Notes: generated by a model not told the origin, from the sequence alone. Counted from the first letter of the stretch, positions 2,925 through 36,213 are shown. The stretch: 64,000 nucleotides of DNA from Candidatus Nanosyncoccus sp. (GCA_045546095.1 JAZQCE010000010.1:5712-69711), one strand, 5' to 3'. Made by a program: numbers and translations.

Positions 2925-3626
2925 CTAGTTCTCCGTCAACTCCTCAAAATTAATCTCGTGCATCGGCACCTTATAAAAATCATACACGACCCTACCGTCA
3001 TCGGCGGTTCGTTTAACTTTTATGTTATTATCCCCTTCATAAAACCAATATCCACCCACATCATAAATCTTGGACTCATCCCAGCCAAGCGCCACCAACA
3101 TATTCTTCATCATACCAGAATAACCGCCGCCGCCACACATCAAGAATATGATCTTATCCTTTGGAAACAAGTCTTCTAAAATCTGCATAGACTCTTTATA
3201 GTTTGCCGTATAAGATCCATCCGAATGATGCTGGAAGAGTGTCTTACCAGTATAAGTATCCCCCACCGCTTCTGGGAGCCCTTTCACGTTCACGATATAC
3301 GGAAAAGGCACTACTTCAAATCCATCCACATATCCAGAAAGGTACGAATCTCCACCAATCGCCTCGTAGTTTCCCGGGTCCTTTAGCATTCTAAGGTCTC
3401 GGTATACAGCATCACTCCGATTCAAATATTGATCAATTGTAGATTCATTTACATTCTTATCAATCCCAAGCTCACCTCGCTGCCCCTCGGATAACTCCGG
3501 CGCCGGTAGCTCCGCGAGCCCCTGCTCAGCCGGAAATGCAAATCTGCCCAGCAAAAACGCCCCGACCACCAGTACCACGGCAATAATCGTACTCCACCAA
3601 ACATATTTTTTCATATTTATCTCCAC
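2925..3626 (-). CDS. Membrane-anchored rhodanese-like domain protein
   Basis: N-terminal TM; FLMCGGGGYS active-site-like loop and YDVGGYW motif of rhodanese domains. Confidence 0.7.
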   Translation of the reverse strand: MEINMKKYVWWSTIIAVVLVVGAFLLGRFAFPAEQGLAELPAPELSEGQRGELGIDKNVNESTIDQYLNRSDAVYRDLRMLKDPGNYEAIGGDSYLSGYVDGFEVVPFPYIVNVKGLPEAVGDTYTGKTLFQHHSDGSYTANYKESMQILEDLFPKDKIIFLMCGGGGYSGMMKNMLVALGWDESKIYDVGGYWFYEGDNNIKVKRTADDGRVVYDFYKVPMHEINFEELTEN

Positions 3627-4469: not shown

Positions 4470-5252
4470 CTAATCTTCTTTTCGCAAAATCTCTGGATTT
4501 AGATGCTCGGTATTAGCTAAATCCTCGCCATCCCCCCGATGCTCCGCCAAAGCTTCCTCATCGGTTGCAGTTTCCGCTACATCATCCTGCACTTTTTCCC
4601 TCTGTGCGGCTAATACCTGAAACAGTTCCGTCAACCCTCGCACACCATATCCGCTCACCGCATATTCAAAATACCCTTTACCGGCCGCCTTCGCGCCCGC
4701 ACGGAGCTCCTCGTATCGCGGGTCAGCCCCCTCTACCTCAGCAATCAATTCTTTCATATCATCGAGAGCCTTAAACGCCCCCTCTACCGACTTTTGCCCA
4801 GACGGCCTATTCACACCTTCACGAAACTCAGCCTCGCTAGCCGCAGCCGCCCCAGCTTCATCCCGCACTTCCCTATATCCTTCTGGCGTATCCACACCCA
4901 AATACTTAAACAAATCTCCAATCGGATCAGCCCTACCACTAGCATCAAACCCTTTTATTTTTTGCACAACAGTCTCCACCCCCATTTCTCGCGCCGCCGC
5001 ATTCAATCCATAATTAATCAATGCTGCCGCGTCAGCAATTCCAGCATTATATTCCGCCCCGGTTTCCTCAGCTCCACCATCTTTTGCCTCTCCATAATAC
5101 TCATTATCCGGATTCGCCACCCCGAGTTTATCACCAGCAAACTCCGGGACACCAGCCTCCATCACTTTCTCAAAATCTTGTTCCGGCGGCACTACTCGCT
5201 CTCTTTCTACTTGTTTGCCAGGGGCTACTTCAAAACTATTATCGTCGTACAT
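4470..5252 (-). CDS. Acidic hypothetical protein
   Basis: 260-aa ORF in operon-like spacing with its neighbours; no recognised motif. Confidence 0.75.
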   Translation of the reverse strand: MYDDNSFEVAPGKQVERERVVPPEQDFEKVMEAGVPEFAGDKLGVANPDNEYYGEAKDGGAEETGAEYNAGIADAAALINYGLNAAAREMGVETVVQKIKGFDASGRADPIGDLFKYLGVDTPEGYREVRDEAGAAAASEAEFREGVNRPSGQKSVEGAFKALDDMKELIAEVEGADPRYEELRAGAKAAGKGYFEYAVSGYGVRGLTELFQVLAAQREKVQDDVAETATDEEALAEHRGDGEDLANTEHLNPEILRKED

Positions 5253-6241: not shown

Positions 6242-6269
6242 ACCTCCATTATACCAAACTCCCCCATCA

Positions 6270-6320
6270 ATTCTAATTATCCAAATAGTTAAAAAGGCAT
6301 TTCATGAATTATATGAGTAA
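6270..6320 (+). pseudogene. Very short C-terminal remnant of a second PemK-like toxin
   Basis: QIVKKAFHELYE* (6282-6320) parallels YKEIRDAYLKLI* at 1294 and is followed by the same convergent RNA/promoter unit. Confidence 0.4.
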
Positions 6321-6373
6321 AAATGTACCCCCGACTTTTCAGAAGGGGGGATTGCGAGTAACCTCGAATATAT
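6316..6373 (-). ncRNA. Putative two-hairpin small RNA (copy 2)
   Basis: Follows a perfect TTGACA-N17-TATAAT; hairpins CGAG/CTCG (6355-6366) and CCCCC/GGGGG (6328-6350); compensatory change relative to copy 1. Confidence 0.55.
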
Positions 6374-6378
6374 TTCAT

Positions 6379-6407
6379 ATTATATCAAGTAGCAAGCATT
6401 TTGTCAA
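6379..6407 (-). promoter_or_regulatory. Consensus sigma70 promoter TTGACA-N17-TATAAT
   Basis: -35 at 6407-6402, -10 at 6384-6379. Confidence 0.8.
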
Positions 6408-6417
6408 TAGAAAGGAT

Positions 6418-6526
6418 AGGTTGGTTATGAATTTAAAGATAAGAATCTTGAATTTCTAAACCAACCTGTTTCCTTAATCCCGTTCACTATTAAAATCTAT
6501 CTCCCGGAACCAAAATAGAAAACATA
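6418..6526 (+). repeat. Cassette boundary repeat R1 (ychF 5' end copy plus element end; palindromic att-like site)
   Basis: AGGTTGGTTATGAATTTAAAGATaaGAATC matches the ychF start (10402-10431); the whole ~110 bp aligns with 8092-8200; inverted arms AGGTTGGTT / AACCAACCT at 6418-6467. Confidence 0.85.
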
Positions 6527-6566
6527 ACGATTTTTATTGCCAAAACAAATGATTTATAATGGTTTC

Positions 6567-6956
6567 ATGTCAAAACCAAGTTATTCAGTTATAGTCCCAA
6601 AAGAGCTTTACCCAAAACCATCAAATCGAGAAATGACTGCTGCCTATATTTTGATTGATTTCTTTAATTCCGATATAAAATTCGTAATCAGAAGCGATAA
6701 TAAAACGCCAGATTTTTTAATTGATAATAAATACTGGGAATTAAAATCTCCTACGGGTAATGGTAAATATAATTTACAGCATGCACTCAGAAATGCTGCT
6801 AAGCAATCAGAAAACGTTATTATTGATGCTAGATTTTCAAAAATTCATATCAATAAAATAAAAAATGAGCTGAATTACCAATTCAAGCACTCTAAAAATA
6901 TAAAGCATCTGCTTTTAATTGATAAGCAGAAAAATGTAGTTGAAATTTCTAGATGA
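6567..6956 (+). CDS. Small PD-(D/E)XK nuclease resembling the tRNA nuclease CdiA C-terminal domain; candidate toxin
   Basis: KTPDFLIDNKYWELKSPTG...LRNAAKQSENVIIDARF motif; ATG 6567 is 6 nt after TATAAT. Family assignment is from recall and needs an HMM check. Confidence 0.75.
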   Translation: MSKPSYSVIVPKELYPKPSNREMTAAYILIDFFNSDIKFVIRSDNKTPDFLIDNKYWELKSPTGNGKYNLQHALRNAAKQSENVIIDARFSKIHINKIKNELNYQFKHSKNIKHLLLIDKQKNVVEISR

Positions 6957-6968
6957 GTACGATATAAT
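6940..6968 (+). promoter_or_regulatory. sigma70 promoter TTGAAA-N17-TATAAT overlapping the nuclease stop codon
   Basis: -35 at 6940-6945 inside the last codons, -10 at 6963-6968. Confidence 0.75.
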
Positions 6969-6974
6969 AAAGAT

Positions 6975-7029
6975 ATCGAAAGTCCGTCAGGCAACGCTGG
7001 ATTGCGTAGGTTCGGGGCTTTCTTTTTTG
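6975..7029 (+). ncRNA. Putative small hairpin RNA (candidate antitoxin)
   Basis: Stem GAAAGTCCG (6978-6986) / CGGGGCTTTC (7013-7022), inner GCAA/TTGC stem, T-run terminator 7023-7028, own promoter. Confidence 0.55.
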
Positions 7030-7044
7030 TGCTATAATGCAACT

Positions 7045-8061
7045 ATGAAGCAGGCTGAAACCACCGATTATTTCAAAATTTTAAGTCCAGATTCTCCAGA
7101 TTGGCTCAAAGATTATATTAATACTAAAGAACTCCAAACCCAAAAATATATCAGTACTACCTGTGGCACACTTTATACCGATTTATTTAGTAGCGATACC
7201 TTTTATTCCAGCTTGGACCACTCCATTGCGGTTGCACTAATTGTCTGGCATTTTACTCACAATAAAAAACAAACTCTTGCTGGGTTGTTTCATGACATTT
7301 CAACTCCTGCCTTCAAACACTGCGTAGATTTTATGAACGGAGATTATCTAAAACAGGAATCTACAGAAGACTTAACTACCGATTTTATTAAAAAATCTCA
7401 GGATGTAATGGATTTACTTAGAGAAGATGATATCAAAATTGCAGAAATCGACAATTATCATATCTATCCAATCGCCGACAACGACACACCAAAATTATCG
7501 GCAGATAGGCTAGAGTATTCATTATCCAATGCGTTATTCACCTATAAAATGTTAGATTTAGAAGAAATTAGAGAGATATACAACGATATAGAAATCGAGC
7601 GAAACGAATCAGGAGAGTCAGAGCTAGGATTCAAAACTAAATCCATCGCTAGAAAGTTTGTCCAAGTTACTAGCAAAATGTCAGTTATCTACCGCGATGA
7701 TAGAACTAGATTCTCCATGCAATTTATTGCAGATATATTAAAAGGGCTAAAAGAAGGCGGTGAAATAACAATAGAAGAATTATACGATAAAAAAGAATCC
7801 GATGTTATTGAGATAATTGAAAAATCAAAATACAAAGATGCCTGGAACATCTGGAAAAAAGCTAAGAAAATCAATATTTCAAAAACTAAACCCGAGGATG
7901 CTTACTATATTCATCAAAAATCCAAAGTACGATATATCGACCCACTTTGTAACGGTGAACGTATGTCTAAAATTTGCAAAATAGCCAAAAATGCCATAGA
8001 CAAAAACCTTTCCTACGATATGAGTAACTATGTCTATCTAGATTTTAAACTCGAAAAATGA
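7045..8061 (+). CDS. HD-domain phosphohydrolase
   Basis: SSLDHSIAVAL...LAGLFHDISTPAFKHCVD...LSADRLEY motifs; start moved to ATG 7045 after TGCTATAAT. Confidence 0.9.
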   Translation: MKQAETTDYFKILSPDSPDWLKDYINTKELQTQKYISTTCGTLYTDLFSSDTFYSSLDHSIAVALIVWHFTHNKKQTLAGLFHDISTPAFKHCVDFMNGDYLKQESTEDLTTDFIKKSQDVMDLLREDDIKIAEIDNYHIYPIADNDTPKLSADRLEYSLSNALFTYKMLDLEEIREIYNDIEIERNESGESELGFKTKSIARKFVQVTSKMSVIYRDDRTRFSMQFIADILKGLKEGGEITIEELYDKKESDVIEIIEKSKYKDAWNIWKKAKKINISKTKPEDAYYIHQKSKVRYIDPLCNGERMSKICKIAKNAIDKNLSYDMSNYVYLDFKLEK

Positions 8062-8076
8062 TATAATCATATCTAT

Positions 8077-8200
8077 AATAACAGATATCACAGGTTGGTT
8101 ATGAATTTAAAGATCGGAATCTTGAATTTTTAAACCAACCCATTTCTTTTATCCCGTTTTCCACAAAAATCCGCCTGCCAAAGCCAAATTGGAAAAACAT
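8077..8200 (+). repeat. Cassette boundary repeat R2
   Basis: 8077-8121 nearly identical to 10388-10431 (1-nt indel); 8092-8200 aligns with R1; palindrome GGTTGGTT...AACCAACC at 8093-8140. Confidence 0.9.
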
Positions 8201-8211
8201 CCATATTAGAA

Positions 8212-8257
8212 CAAAAAGATAGGACTCACCTATTCCGAGGCAAGTCCTATCTTAATA
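8212..8257 (-). ncRNA. Putative small hairpin RNA downstream of the deleted nuclease
   Basis: Perfect 11-bp stem AAGATAGGACT (8216-8226) / AGTCCTATCTT (8243-8253), T-run on the minus strand, own promoter. Confidence 0.55.
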
Positions 8258-8262
8258 ATCTA

Positions 8263-8291
8263 ATTATACCAAAACTACTTCTTAAAATCAA
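8263..8291 (-). promoter_or_regulatory. sigma70 promoter TTGATT-N17-TATAAT overlapping the stop of the deleted nuclease
   Basis: -35 at 8291-8286, -10 at 8268-8263; same register relative to the stop codon as 6940-6968. Confidence 0.7.
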
Positions 8292-8403
8292 CTATTTTCT
8301 TAGTTTTTGTCACAATCTTTAACCTTTCGGTAAATAACAGAATCGTCTTATATTCGTGTTTCTCTAAAATAACACCATTTGGGATAATTTTACCTTTTTT
8401 CAT
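8275..8403 (-). pseudogene. Internally deleted paralog of the CdiA_C-like nuclease (42 aa)
   Basis: MKKGKIIPNGVILEKHEYKTILLFTE|RLKIVTKTKKIVDFKK*: the N- and C-terminal parts align by eye with the two ends of the 6567-6956 protein; the catalytic PD..ELK core is absent. Confidence 0.6.
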
Positions 8404-8590
8404 GCGAGGCATTATAACTAATCCACTCTACTTTTTCAACCCCCCTACCCACAATATGATCTAATGCAAACATCGAAACTTTTGCGGGACACAGTATGTA
8501 GCGAGCGCGAGGACCGAATATTTACATTTTTATTTTTTAATGTATAATAAGTATGAAAAGTATAACCAGTTATACTTTAAGGAAGCGTGC

Positions 8591-8791
8591 ATGAAAAATA
8601 AATTTGTAGGTATAGCCAAAGTTGGTGAAAAAGGACAAATTGTTATTCCAAAAGAAGCAAGAGAAATGTTTGATATTAAATCTGGTGATTCTATCATCGT
8701 TCTTTGTGATAAACAAAAAGGAATTGCTTTATTGAAAGCAGATGCAATTGAAGATTTATCGGATAAAGTATTTCCTAAGGAAGAAAGATAA
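8591..8791 (+). CDS. AbrB/MazE/SpoVT-family DNA-binding protein
   Basis: AKVGEKGQIVIPKEAREMFDIKSGD signature; start moved to ATG 8591. Confidence 0.9.
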   Translation: MKNKFVGIAKVGEKGQIVIPKEAREMFDIKSGDSIIVLCDKQKGIALLKADAIEDLSDKVFPKEER

Positions 8792-9513
8792 TGATAGCAA
8801 TAGAAACAAAAAATTTAACCAAAAAGTTTAAAGACAAAACAGCAGTAAATGGGGTCGATTTGAGCATCAAACAAGGAGAGCTATTTGCACTATTAGGAAC
8901 AAATGGCGCCGGTAAAACTACAATAATAAAAATTTTATCAGGATTGATATTACCAACATCTGGGAATATTAAAATTGAAAACATGGATATGAAAAAAGAT
9001 GTATTTAAGATAAAAGAAATCTTAAATGTATCACCACAAGAAACTGCTATTGCACCAAATTTAACAGTAAAAGAAAATTTAGAATTTATGGCAGGAGTTT
9101 ATCAAATAAAAGATAAAGAAAGAAAGATTAATGAACTTGTTAAGGAGTTTAAGCTTGATGAAGTTTTAAATAAAAGAGCTAAAACTTTGTCAGGCGGATG
9201 GCAAAGAAAAGTATCAATAGCAATTAGTTTAATAAATGATCCTAAAATACTATTTTTAGATGAACCAACATTAGGATTAGATGTTATTGCTAGAAAAAGG
9301 TTATGGAAAGTGATTGAAGGATTAAAAGGTAAAATTACTATTATTTTAACTACTCATTACATGGAAGAAGCAGAAAGCTTATCTGATAGAATTGGTATCA
9401 TGGCAAAGGGCAACATCGTTGAAGTTGGAACCGCTAAAGAATTAATTAAGAAGACTAAAGCAAAAAACTTTGAAGATGCATTTGTAGCAATCGCAACTGA
9501 AGGTGAGCTATAG
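8791..9513 (+). CDS. ABC transporter ATP-binding protein (ABC-2 type)
   Basis: Walker A GTNGAGKTT, LSGG signature, Walker B ILFLDEPT, TTHYMEE. Confidence 0.95.
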   Translation: MIAIETKNLTKKFKDKTAVNGVDLSIKQGELFALLGTNGAGKTTIIKILSGLILPTSGNIKIENMDMKKDVFKIKEILNVSPQETAIAPNLTVKENLEFMAGVYQIKDKERKINELVKEFKLDEVLNKRAKTLSGGWQRKVSIAISLINDPKILFLDEPTLGLDVIARKRLWKVIEGLKGKITIILTTHYMEEAESLSDRIGIMAKGNIVEVGTAKELIKKTKAKNFEDAFVAIATEGEL

Positions 9514-10244
9514 TGAGAATGTTAAATTTCGCCAAGAGAAACTTTAAAGAATTAATAAGAGATCCTTTAAGTTTAATATTTGAAATCGCTTTGCCATTAT
9601 TTTTATTATTTATATTTCAACAATTTGATATACCAGCAGAAAACTACAAATTAGAAAATTTTACTCCAGGAATTATAGTATTTGGTTTTTCATTTATAAC
9701 TTTATTTACTGCTACTTTAATTGCAAAAGACAGAACATCATCATTTTTAATTAGATTAGGTACATCGCCAATGAAGTCGAGCGATTATATTTTAGGATAC
9801 ATAATATCACTAATTCCAATCATAATAATCCAAAATGTATTATTCTTTTCACTAGCAGTTATTTTGGGACTAAACTTTACTATAAACATATTTTTTACAA
9901 TTATCGTATCTATAATAGTTTCAATATTATTTATTTCATTAGGTATATTAATTGGAAGTTTAGTCAGTGAAAAAGGAACTGGTGGGTTAGGAAGTGTAAT
10001 AGTTCAATTAGTATGTTTTACAAGCGGTATGTATTTTCCAAATGATAAAATTGGAGATGTATTTGGTTTTATATGCAGAATCTTACCATTTGAAAGTTGT
10101 TTAAATATAATAAAAAGTGTATTAAACAATAATCTAAATGCAATATCACTGGAAAATATAATAGTATTTTTAATATATACGATTGGAATTTTGATTTTAT
10201 CAATTATTGTATTCAAAAAGAGAATGATAAGTGACAATAAGTGA
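9513..10244 (+). CDS. ABC-2 type transporter permease
   Basis: Six hydrophobic segments, FTSGMYFP motif, translationally coupled to the ATPase. Confidence 0.9.
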   Translation: MRMLNFAKRNFKELIRDPLSLIFEIALPLFLLFIFQQFDIPAENYKLENFTPGIIVFGFSFITLFTATLIAKDRTSSFLIRLGTSPMKSSDYILGYIISLIPIIIIQNVLFFSLAVILGLNFTINIFFTIIVSIIVSILFISLGILIGSLVSEKGTGGLGSVIVQLVCFTSGMYFPNDKIGDVFGFICRILPFESCLNIIKSVLNNNLNAISLENIIVFLIYTIGILILSIIVFKKRMISDNK

Positions 10245-10387
10245 TTGGAAAGTTTTTCAAAGTATTCTCGAATAATCAAACCAACTCCATCATAACAAAC
10301 TGAACAAATACCCCACCCGCAGTTTGCCTTGCACAAACTTTATCATATCTAATGTTATACACCAAAATATGCTATAATTATACCAGC

Positions 10388-10431
10388 AATAACAGATATA
10401 CAGGTTGGTTATGAATTTAAAGATCGGAATC
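10388..10431 (+). repeat. Cassette boundary repeat R3 (the functional ychF start)
   Basis: AATAACAGATATACAGGTTGGTTATGAATTTAAAGATCGGAATC; diverges from R1/R2 right after GAATC. Confidence 0.9.
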
Positions 10432-11526
10432 GTTGGGTTGCCCAATGTCGGCAAATCCACATTGTTTAATGCTCTCACAAACGCTGGCGCCCTCGCTGCC
10501 AACTATCCTTTTGCTACCATCGAGCCAAACGTCGGCATTGTCCCGGTACCAGATGAGCGGCTAGACATCCTCGCCAAAATGTACGAGACCGACAAAATCG
10601 TCCCAGCTACTGTCGAGTTCGTCGACATTGCTGGCCTCGTCGCAGGCGCCTCAAAAGGCGAGGGGCTCGGCAATAAATTCCTTGCCCACATCCGTGAATG
10701 CCAAGCTATCTGCCATGTGGTCCGCGCCTTCAAAAACGACGACATCCTCCGTGCCGACCAAAAACTCGTCGATGATATTGTAGCGCAAGCCAAGGACGAC
10801 ATAGACATCATTAACTTAGAGCTACAGCTCGCCGACGAAGAAACCAAAGCCAAAATCGCCGCCAAACGCAAAAAAGACCCTGGGGACGAATTCATCCCCT
10901 ACCTCACCGACAAGCCCGTCATCTATATGTTCAATGTAGACGAAAAAGGCCTCACCGACAATGACCTACAACAAAAACTAACAGAAGTCGCAAGAAATGC
11001 GCAGTCGAGGGACATAAAGGCAATACTTGCCGAAGGCAATTTTGCCGCCGAAGGGGCGAAGCGAGGTGATAAAATTTCTAATTTATCACCTCGCGAAGCT
11101 CCCGAGACGTGCATTTCTTGCGACTCAAACTGTATTTTTGTTGATGCCAAACTCGAAGAGGAGATGTCCGGCATGGACCGCAATGAGCGCAAAGAGTTCT
11201 TGGAGAGTTACGGGGTAAAAGAAGATGCACTCGGCGAATTAATCAAGGCCGCCTATGACGTCCTCGGTCTCCAATCCTTCCTCACCGCCGGCAAGAAAGA
11301 ATGCCGCGCCTGGACCATCAAAAAAGGCTCTACAGCACCCCAAGCCGCCGGTACTATCCATACCGATTTTGAACGCGGTTTCATCGCTGCAAATGTCTGT
11401 AAATACGCCGACTTAGCAAGACTCGGCTCCGAGAAAGCCGTCCGCGAGGCCGGCCTCCTCCGCACCGAGGGCAAGACTTACGTCATGCAAGACGGCGACG
11501 TTGTCGAATTCCGTTTCAACGTATAA
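10411..11526 (+). CDS. ychF: Redox-regulated ATPase YchF (with in-frame hairpin insertion)
   Basis: GIVGLPNVGKST, NYPFATIEPN, FVDIAGLV, TGS domain IHTDFERGFI, YVMQDGD. Confidence 0.97.
   Translation: MNLKIGIVGLPNVGKSTLFNALTNAGALAANYPFATIEPNVGIVPVPDERLDILAKMYETDKIVPATVEFVDIAGLVAGASKGEGLGNKFLAHIRECQAICHVVRAFKNDDILRADQKLVDDIVAQAKDDIDIINLELQLADEETKAKIAAKRKKDPGDEFIPYLTDKPVIYMFNVDEKGLTDNDLQQKLTEVARNAQSRDIKAILAEGNFAAEGAKRGDKISNLSPREAPETCISCDSNCIFVDAKLEEEMSGMDRNERKEFLESYGVKEDALGELIKAAYDVLGLQSFLTAGKKECRAWTIKKGSTAPQAAGTIHTDFERGFIAANVCKYADLARLGSEKAVREAGLLRTEGKTYVMQDGDVVEFRFNV
10986..11125. repeat. Hairpin element family C, copy in ychF
   Basis: Arms AGTCGCAAGAAATGC / GCATTTCTTGCGACT; core TCGAGGGACATAAAGGCAA...GCCGAAGGGGCGAAGC shared with 36082 and 40266. 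Confidence 0.85.
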
Positions 11527-36081: not shown

Positions 36082-36213
36082 AGTAATTGCTAAAACATAA
36101 CGTCGAGGGACATAAAGACAAAATCTCTGATTTTGTCGCCGAAGGGGCAAAGCTTTTGTGTAAATTTATTATCACATCGCGGAGCTCCCAAGACGTATGT
36201 TTTAGCAATTACT
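36082..36213. repeat. Hairpin element family C, copy upstream of pnp
   Basis: Arms AGTAATTGCTAAAACATA(A)CGTC / GACGTATGTTTTAGCAATTACT; family C core. Confidence 0.85.

Follow-up and report, generated by a model that had tools for sequence, protein, structure and literature searches.

The analyzed window is a 64,000-nt stretch of the genome of Candidatus Nanosyncoccus sp. (GCA_045546095.1, JAZQCE010000010.1:5712-69711), in which the gene ychF is preceded by two AT-rich gene cassettes arranged in tandem. The sequence AGGTTGGTT together with the first 21 nt of ychF is present in three copies, designated R1, R2, and R3, with ATG codons at 6427, 8101, and 10411, as stated in the initial annotation of this region. 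The 23-mer AGGTTGGTTATGAATTTAAAGAT has exactly three matches in the window (6418, 8092, and 10402, all on the + strand), and the number of matches expected by chance was 0 (100 shuffles). A genome-wide search for other copies of the site, proposed in the same annotation, found none across the 832-kb, 27-contig genome. Downstream of R1 and R2, the similarity extends over 117 nt (6406-6522 versus 8080-8196, 78% identity), and the upstream flanks of R2 and R3 are 70% identical (8035-8088 versus 10346-10399), including AATAACAGATAT(C)AC. Both of these shared ends had been described previously and were confirmed, and the proposed B-P', P-P', and P-B' order of host (B) and cassette (P) ends holds for R1, R2, and R3, respectively.

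The ATG codons are spaced by 1674 bp and then 2310 bp, and the GC content across positions 6250-10400 is 0.24-0.37, compared with about 0.5 in the flanks. The expectation that these intervals represent discrete AT-rich cassettes without a recombinase was borne out, since no recombinase genes were found in either of them, and the start of ychF has been restored by every insertion. A feature absent from the initial annotation is that R1 and R2 are 50-bp imperfect palindromes with a 23-4-23 layout, AGGTTGGTTATGAATTTAAAGAT-NNNN-ATCTTGAATTTCTAAACCAACCT. R3 comprises only the left arm, which runs into ychF, and is structurally equivalent to an unoccupied bacterial attachment site (attB). The point at which the flanks diverge, after GAATC, falls just beyond the palindrome center. 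The features of the locus are listed in the table.

Table. Features of the ychF-proximal cassette array, with positions counted from the first letter of the window. LSR, large serine recombinase.
Feature	Position	Strand	Details
Native intergenic region and ychF leader (B-left)	6250..6417	+	Ends with ...AATAGAAAGGAT before the left arm; compared with cassette-free relatives
Promoter of the upstream gene	6407 to 6379	-	12/12 consensus; within B-left
Junction R1 (B-left + P')	6418..6467	+	Arms 6418-6440 and 6445-6467; center AAGA 6441-6444
Cassette 1	6448..8121	+	1674 bp, GC 0.33
P' extension, cassette 1	6444..6518	+	Recombinase frame reads NLEFLNQPVSLIPFTIKIYLPEPK, then stop; conserved "LSR tail exon"
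CdiA-CT-like PD-(D/E)xK nuclease toxin domain, stand-alone	6567..6956	+	129 aa; Pfam PF18451, E 2.9e-18
Protein with H...HD motif, no family match	7045..8061	+	338 aa; TATAAT-N6-ATG upstream, looks leaderless
P-left of cassette 1	8062..8091	+	TATAAT 8062-8067 and 8074-8079, then AACAGATATCAC; copy of the ychF promoter/leader
Junction R2 (cassette 1 P-left + cassette 2 P')	8092..8141	+	Arms 8092-8114 and 8119-8141; center CGGA 8115-8118
Cassette 2	8122..10431	+	2310 bp, GC 0.29
P' extension, cassette 2	8118..8222	+	Recombinase frame reads NLEFLNQPISFIPFSTKIRLPKPNWKNIHIRTKR, then stop
Terminator-like hairpin	8216-8253		Near the toxin remnant
Nuclease-toxin family remnant	8275..8412	-	45 aa, internal deletion; intact copies in relatives 129 aa
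AbrB/MazE-type DNA-binding protein	8591..8791	+	66 aa
ABC transporter ATPase, DrrA-like	8791..9513	+	
ABC-2 type permease, DrrB-like	9513..10244	+	
P-left of cassette 2	10373..10401	+	TATAAT 10373-10378, then ...AATAACAGATATAC; promoter/leader now serving ychF
Terminal site R3 (P-left + B')	10402..10431	+	Left arm 10402-10424, center CGGA, ychF codons 6-7
ychF	10411..11526	+	371 aa, intact

The comparison drew on 20 loci, 50 contigs from genomes, and 38 from metagenomes of Candidatus Nanosyncoccus (Saccharibacteria) living in the gut of sheep, goats, and buffalo. The site pattern was found 0-8 times per genome in 49 genomes of the same genus, always in clusters on one strand. Some Nanosyncoccus species have no cassettes at the ychF site and others have from one to seven, and all arrays on the genome and metagenome contigs examined terminate in ychF MNLKIGIVGLPNVGKST. 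The cassette-free species carry an unoccupied site, TGNTATAAT-AACAGAT-ATGAATTTAAAGATNGGNATC-GTCGG or its leadered variant, and the palindrome was absent from all of them. The initial annotation expected cassette number and content to differ among relatives and empty sites to exist, and this is what the comparison of the region upstream of ychF revealed; therefore, the fixed content without an empty ychF site that it named as a counterargument does not describe this locus.

The catalog comprises 98 distinct cassettes, which range from 108 to 4015 bp in length with a median of 983 bp. They contain 142 open reading frames (ORFs) that fall into 85 families, 64 of them singletons, and 97 of the 142 ORFs are antisense to ychF. 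The Pfam-assigned cargo includes NUDIX, GNAT, MFS, NYN, serine hydrolase, metallophosphatase, methyltransferase, amylase, MBL, HAD, and ABC transporter proteins, while no recombinases were identified by Pfam among the cargo of the 98 cassettes. The 5' end of a cassette consists of the right palindrome arm and about 90 conserved nt. At the 3' end, a TATAAT box placed 20-21 or 32-33 nt from the downstream ATG precedes ...AACAGATATCACA, after which come the left arm and codons 1-7 of ychF; such a box is present 20-33 nt upstream of the carried ATG in most cassettes. Since a copy of the ychF promoter and leader is carried at the 3' end, each cassette is predicted to maintain ychF expression. For three cross-species pairs, whole cassettes were 96.7%, 94.4%, and 92.8% identical, whereas the adjacent ychF genes were 69.9%, 70.0%, and 78.5% identical. 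Whole cassettes are thus far more alike than the genes next to them and therefore move between species as units.

Large serine recombinases (LSRs) of any kind are encoded in 32 of the 51 genomes of the genus. In one genome (G026), a 590-aa protein with Resolvase, Recombinase, and Zn_ribbon_recom domains ends exactly on the start of ychF. Its gene stands at the right end of an AT-rich element of 7.4 kb, which likewise codes for an AAA_25 ATPase and is bounded by the host promoter joined to P' on the left and by the left arm and ychF on the right. C-terminal remnants of such recombinases were found at the same place relative to ychF in two more species (G023 and G037), and the sequences of these genomes considered at first as "108-bp empty cassettes" are actually the 3' coding tail of the recombinase. 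For G047, with its odd first site, no recombinase remnant was found upstream of that site. In the protein database, the G026 recombinase matched 13 clusters at 65%-77% identity and others at 45%-51%. Six clusters were looked up (46%-77% identity, about 20 contigs, many samples), and all of them were located directly upstream of ychF, beside an AAA_25 gene, which makes the ychF start the attachment site of this LSR clade. These ychF-linked elements span 7-9 kb, and the left junction in two LSR contigs connects a promoter of the unoccupied type to P'. In IMG/VR, the search for a free element gave no match to the site pattern, and the recombinase search yielded just a 27% identical relative.

Over 110 nt, the P' ends of the LSR elements and of some recombinase-less cassettes are 82%-85% identical, and the homology of these ends is recognizable in all cassettes. 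In the frame of the LSR, the P' extension has a median open length of 32 codons and reaches at least 20 codons in 80 of the 104 junctions compared, while the other two frames gave 4 codons and 1 codon. The encoded tail peptide of about 30 residues, NLEFLNQP...IPF.K..LPKPKW, is conserved, with one-codon indels and an excess of variation at third codon positions. One 661-aa LSR (P0022) reads through a P-P' junction into such a tail. In the window, the tail exons 6444-6518 and 8118-8222 are retained and are entered by no gene of the genome. The recombinase search suggested in the initial annotation revealed three tyrosine recombinases in this genome, none of them near the array, but no serine recombinase, so the window holds satellites only. 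The possibility, also raised there, that a full element with its own integrase accounts for both cassettes was supported in part: an LSR element uses the same site in relatives, but the window cassettes are not decay products of one island, because both ends are complete in either cassette and such cassettes are transferred between species as whole units.

In every ychF-linked LSR gene (L198-L211; L192:14297-14344), another complete palindrome, centered on GC instead of GG, precedes the real junction by about 105 nt. The peptide encoded there, VGFxxKDSNLQNxNQH, nearly duplicates the one that spans the attachment site of the element (attP).

The position of the exchange was deduced from the third bases of ychF codons 7 and 6 (positions -1 and -4). 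In the junctions, these positions are fixed (C in 103/104 and A in 98/104, respectively), whereas at the terminal sites they vary as host synonymous sites do (C32/T19/A2 and A37/C8/T7/G1). In addition, one first junction has host-type codons as far as position -13. The exchange therefore takes place within AAGATCGG(A), at the palindrome center. The two central G residues are present in 99/104 and 98/104 junctions; R1 of the window, with the mutated center AAGA instead of the consensus NGGA, is unique among them. The crossover is resolved to 9 nt, not to 2 nt, and GG doubles as a glycine codon. At this 9-nt resolution, the 50-bp palindrome, the near-invariant GG, and the central exchange are in keeping with LSR sites, which are imperfect palindromes of about 50 bp (attP) and about 40 bp (attB) that recombine at a central dinucleotide. 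Arm positions are 85%-100% conserved in sequence across the 104 junctions, with one-sided changes only and no compensatory changes in the arms. The P' extension showed no consensus RNA fold, no Rfam match, and no tRNA. Judging from the sequences, the site fits a symmetric double-stranded protein-binding site rather than an attC-like hairpin, and attC and RNA-structure readings of it were rejected for lack of covariation, P' fold, Rfam match, and tRNA.

Taken as a whole, we consider it probable that the array consists of two recombinase-less, LSR-dependent satellite cassettes, similar to the staphylococcal cassette chromosome (SCC) and its pseudo-SCC elements, with the first seven codons of ychF as the attB of the recombinase. 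The LSR would move the cassettes in trans, a mode of mobilization already supposed in the initial annotation. According to this scheme, attB would be composed of the left arm, GG, and ychF, while attP of both elements and cassettes would be the 50-bp palindrome composed of the left arm, GG, and the inverted left arm, where the left arm copies the ychF leader and start. Crossover would occur at the central GG, corresponding to ychF codon 6. As the left arm is common to attP and attB, integration would regenerate an attB-like site beside ychF and leave an attP-like palindrome on the far side; further cassettes could then insert at the regenerated site next to the gene, and arrays would build up. 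Excision might in principle proceed through the same recombination between attP-like and attB-like sites. Each cassette comprises a 5' LSR-frame tail of about 90 nt, one to four cargo genes, and a 3' copy of the ychF promoter and leader. The array of this genome is probably frozen and immobile at present, since the genome lacks an LSR and the R1 center is mutated.

Several observations weigh against the proposed satellite nature of the cassettes. The ychF-linked LSR is rare (3 of 51 species and none of the 38 metagenome array contigs), although arrays are common. Circular cassette contigs were not found among the 38 metagenome contigs, and neither excision products nor within-species cassette polymorphism were seen, near-identical ychF clusters being mostly duplicate contigs. 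In canonical LSR systems, recombination is confined to attP and attB, and excision requires a directionality factor. P-left differs in the LSR elements, where it is the coding tail of the recombinase itself, and these elements carry the GC-centered internal palindrome, which the model does not explain. The excess of third-position entropy in the P' tail is modest (31.0 versus 25.8 and 24.8). A second ychF contig of G025, considered as a strain variant, was only 81.5% identical and hence belongs to another species.

A more far-reaching version, which we regard as tentative, is that Saccharibacteria possess an integron-like gene capture system driven by a serine recombinase whose gene is split by its own attachment site. 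The LSR would then gain its tail only upon joining a P' end, which could happen in a free circle or upstream of a further cassette, and a cassette would be a package of a tail exon, cargo, and a replacement ychF promoter. The state of integration would switch the enzyme between two forms, and the always-regenerated attB-like site would permit unlimited stacking and shuffling without a directionality factor.

The alternative that cassettes now spread mainly by homologous recombination following DNA uptake, through junction arms of about 140 nt on the left and 80 nt on the right, with a site-specific origin long ago, appears unlikely. It agrees with the 80%-97% conservation of cassette ends across species over about 50 + 90 nt, with the lack of the ychF-linked LSR in most array-bearing genomes, and with the presence of fused or partly deleted cassettes (the toxin remnant at 8275-8412, the composite L037_c1, and a NUDIX fusion in G025). 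However, arms of this length are short for exchange between species whose flanks are about 70% identical, base precision is kept at 104 junctions, and the LSR-frame tail is open in 77% of cassettes, which suggests ongoing recombinase-linked selection. Homologous recombination via the conserved ends may nevertheless add to the site-specific route.

We consider it rather improbable that a single housekeeping Xer recombinase moves the cassettes, as it does with integrative mobile elements exploiting Xer (IMEX) at dif or with pdif modules, so that the palindrome would be the core with a 6-8 bp overlap. Xer is encoded in all array-bearing genomes and is the only tyrosine recombinase in many of them, including G002 with its seven cassettes, and a palindrome with a central crossover suits the core geometry of tyrosine recombinases. 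On the other hand, the site is not at the terminus and matches 16 of 28 dif consensus positions, although dif-likeness is a weak test because no canonical dif was found in this genome either (best match 23/28, none unique). Partner sites differ in the center at positions -7 and -4, and such differences are poorly compatible with a 6-8 bp overlap; moreover, Xer leaves unexplained both the cassette ends common with LSR elements and the open LSR frame. Positive support for Xer-driven movement was not obtained.

A true integron analogue, in which an unrecognized recombinase acts on the palindromes as attC-like single-stranded hairpins, is very improbable: cassette size, single-gene content, and cargo diversity do resemble integron arrays and the palindromes fold stably when single-stranded (-16 to -24 kcal/mol), but no IntI-type gene is present, the three tyrosine recombinases scored 123, 88, and 47 bits with the integron-integrase model, far under the cut-off of 265, the arms are conserved without compensation, and the crossover lies at the hairpin tip, not at an R box near the base. 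The integron reading is thus largely refuted in its defining features, and the term "integron-like" used in the initial annotation does not hold for the mechanism, given also that promoters are present on the cassettes themselves and most cassette genes run antisense to ychF.

The tyrosine recombinases of the window genome are the housekeeping Xer, a prophage integrase, and a phage-type integrase on another contig. A 301-aa Xer-like recombinase (contig C5) considered as the cassette enzyme was rejected, since it is the prophage integrase located beside a terminase gene; the prophage-like region (G000:C5:84800-90800, L068) contains the large terminase and this integrase next to a tRNA-like repeat. 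A second integrative element (G000:C22, L006) encodes a 364-aa tyrosine integrase, an HTH excisionase-like protein, and an AAA_25-type ATPase. Homologues with 41%-46% identity located 2-6 kb from arrays in G025, G007, and G031 were also rejected as belonging to a phase-variation switch with repeats unlike the cassette site. In G031 (L069, contig C35), inverted repeats of 131 nt (3367-3497 and 4472-4602, 92% complementary) flank an Xer-like gene encoding about 280 aa and reach into the 5' ends of two gene clusters, divergent and paralogous, for secreted and membrane proteins; loci of this kind are also present at G025:C4:1-1016 and near position 66124 of G007:C1. This arrangement looks like an invertible phase-variation switch for surface proteins of Nanosyncoccus.

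The 129-aa nuclease of cassette 1 contains the invariant residues E22, D49, E58, and K60. Its AlphaFold model (predicted local distance difference test score of 90) had a sole significant fold match, the Burkholderia CdiA-CT toxin 4g6v_A (TM 0.70). This nuclease family is the most common cargo, found in 21 of the 98 cassettes. A conserved GC-rich hairpin with a T run (GAAAGTCCGTCAGG...GGGGCTTTCTTTTTT) was observed 3' of the nuclease-toxin gene in several cassettes, including the window (6978-7029) and cassette 7 of L036, and is probably the terminator of a portable toxin module that is found in either orientation adjoining the P' end. The 338-aa HD-like protein has an 85% identical copy within a cassette of another species. 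A TATAAT box 6-7 nt before the ATG without a Shine-Dalgarno sequence was found for this gene (7033-7047) and for ychF of cassette-free species (L125-L129), which suggests that leaderless mRNAs may be common in Nanosyncoccus.

At L038 (G025:C4, 1762-3147), a cassette-like NUDIX domain is fused to the N-terminus of a conserved membrane protein normally located upstream of the array, which looks like a cassette gene captured through a deletion of the left junction. Within ychF of the window, an in-frame insert of about 140 nt (10986-11125) is missing in relatives (371 versus about 331 aa). The insert has perfect 15-nt inverted ends and a predicted fold of -76.5 kcal/mol, and its 67-nt core (GCCGAAGGGGCGAAGCGAGGTGATAAA...TTTATCACCTCGCGAAGCTCCC) is present in at least 25 copies in the genome, including those near 36100 and 40290 in the window. 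It looks like a miniature inverted-repeat transposable element or a REP-like hairpin repeat tolerated within the coding region.

Candidate phyla radiation (CPR) bacteria have tiny genomes and few recognized routes of gene gain, and here the start of one housekeeping gene serves as a docking site, at which dozens of gut Saccharibacteria species keep different accessory genes, including those for toxins, efflux pumps, NUDIX hydrolases, acetyltransferases, and methyltransferases. A published description of ychF cassette arrays was not found in the literature searched. If the LSR indeed drives them, they would represent a third independent solution for cassette capture, in addition to integrons and SCC, with an attachment site design that regenerates the target after every insertion, and the small, well-defined attachment site pair would be a candidate genetic tool.

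Four known systems share properties with these arrays. IMEX and pdif modules likewise comprise recombinase-less modules with short palindromic bounds that are stacked in tandem and depend on an enzyme encoded elsewhere, but the ychF site does not appear dif-like (16/28) and a dedicated family of serine recombinases is tied to it. In phages with large serine integrases (phiC31, Bxb1, and TP901-1), int is located beside attP, and attP itself is imperfectly palindromic over about 50 bp, its central dinucleotide being non-palindromic. The ychF-linked recombinases have the same Resolvase, Recombinase, and zinc ribbon composition, the gene is next to the putative attP, and this palindrome is about 50 bp long. 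Unlike in the phage systems, a whole half-site of at least 23 bp is common to attP and attB, and attB-like and attP-like sites would be regenerated instead of inert attL and attR; we infer that the common half-site would make stacking possible, and perhaps also excision in the absence of a directionality factor. Similar to integrons and clusters of attC sites lacking integron-integrases (CALIN), small, mostly single-gene cassettes of diverse content accumulate at one fixed site, often without a nearby recombinase, and toxins are frequent. In contrast to them, IntI is missing, the sites are conserved in sequence and recombine at the center rather than being structure-defined attC hairpins, and there is no common Pc promoter, promoters being carried by the cassettes themselves, two thirds of whose ORFs lie on the strand opposite to ychF.

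The SCC integrases CcrAB are large serine recombinases, and LSRs are likely integrases at ychF as well. In both cases, insertion occurs at the end of a conserved housekeeping gene, which is restored by the element, and tandem units with very diverse cargo lie between gene-end repeats, some of them being recombinase-less and thought to be moved in trans. Such an organization is known for SCC and SCCmec composite islands with ccr-less pseudo-SCC elements at rlmH (10.1101/336396; PMC13739063). The target here is the 5' end of ychF (promoter and seven codons) rather than the 3' end of rlmH; each ychF unit must therefore bring a promoter. The units are also smaller (0.1-4 kb versus 10-60 kb in SCC), and the recombinase ORF crosses attP, so that its tail is encoded at the distal end of the element or of the following cassette. 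Moreover, the host belongs to the CPR, and the resemblance to SCC is functional only. By this comparison, the closest known system appears to be the staphylococcal SCC composite island with its ccr-less partners, while integrons are alike in outcome only.

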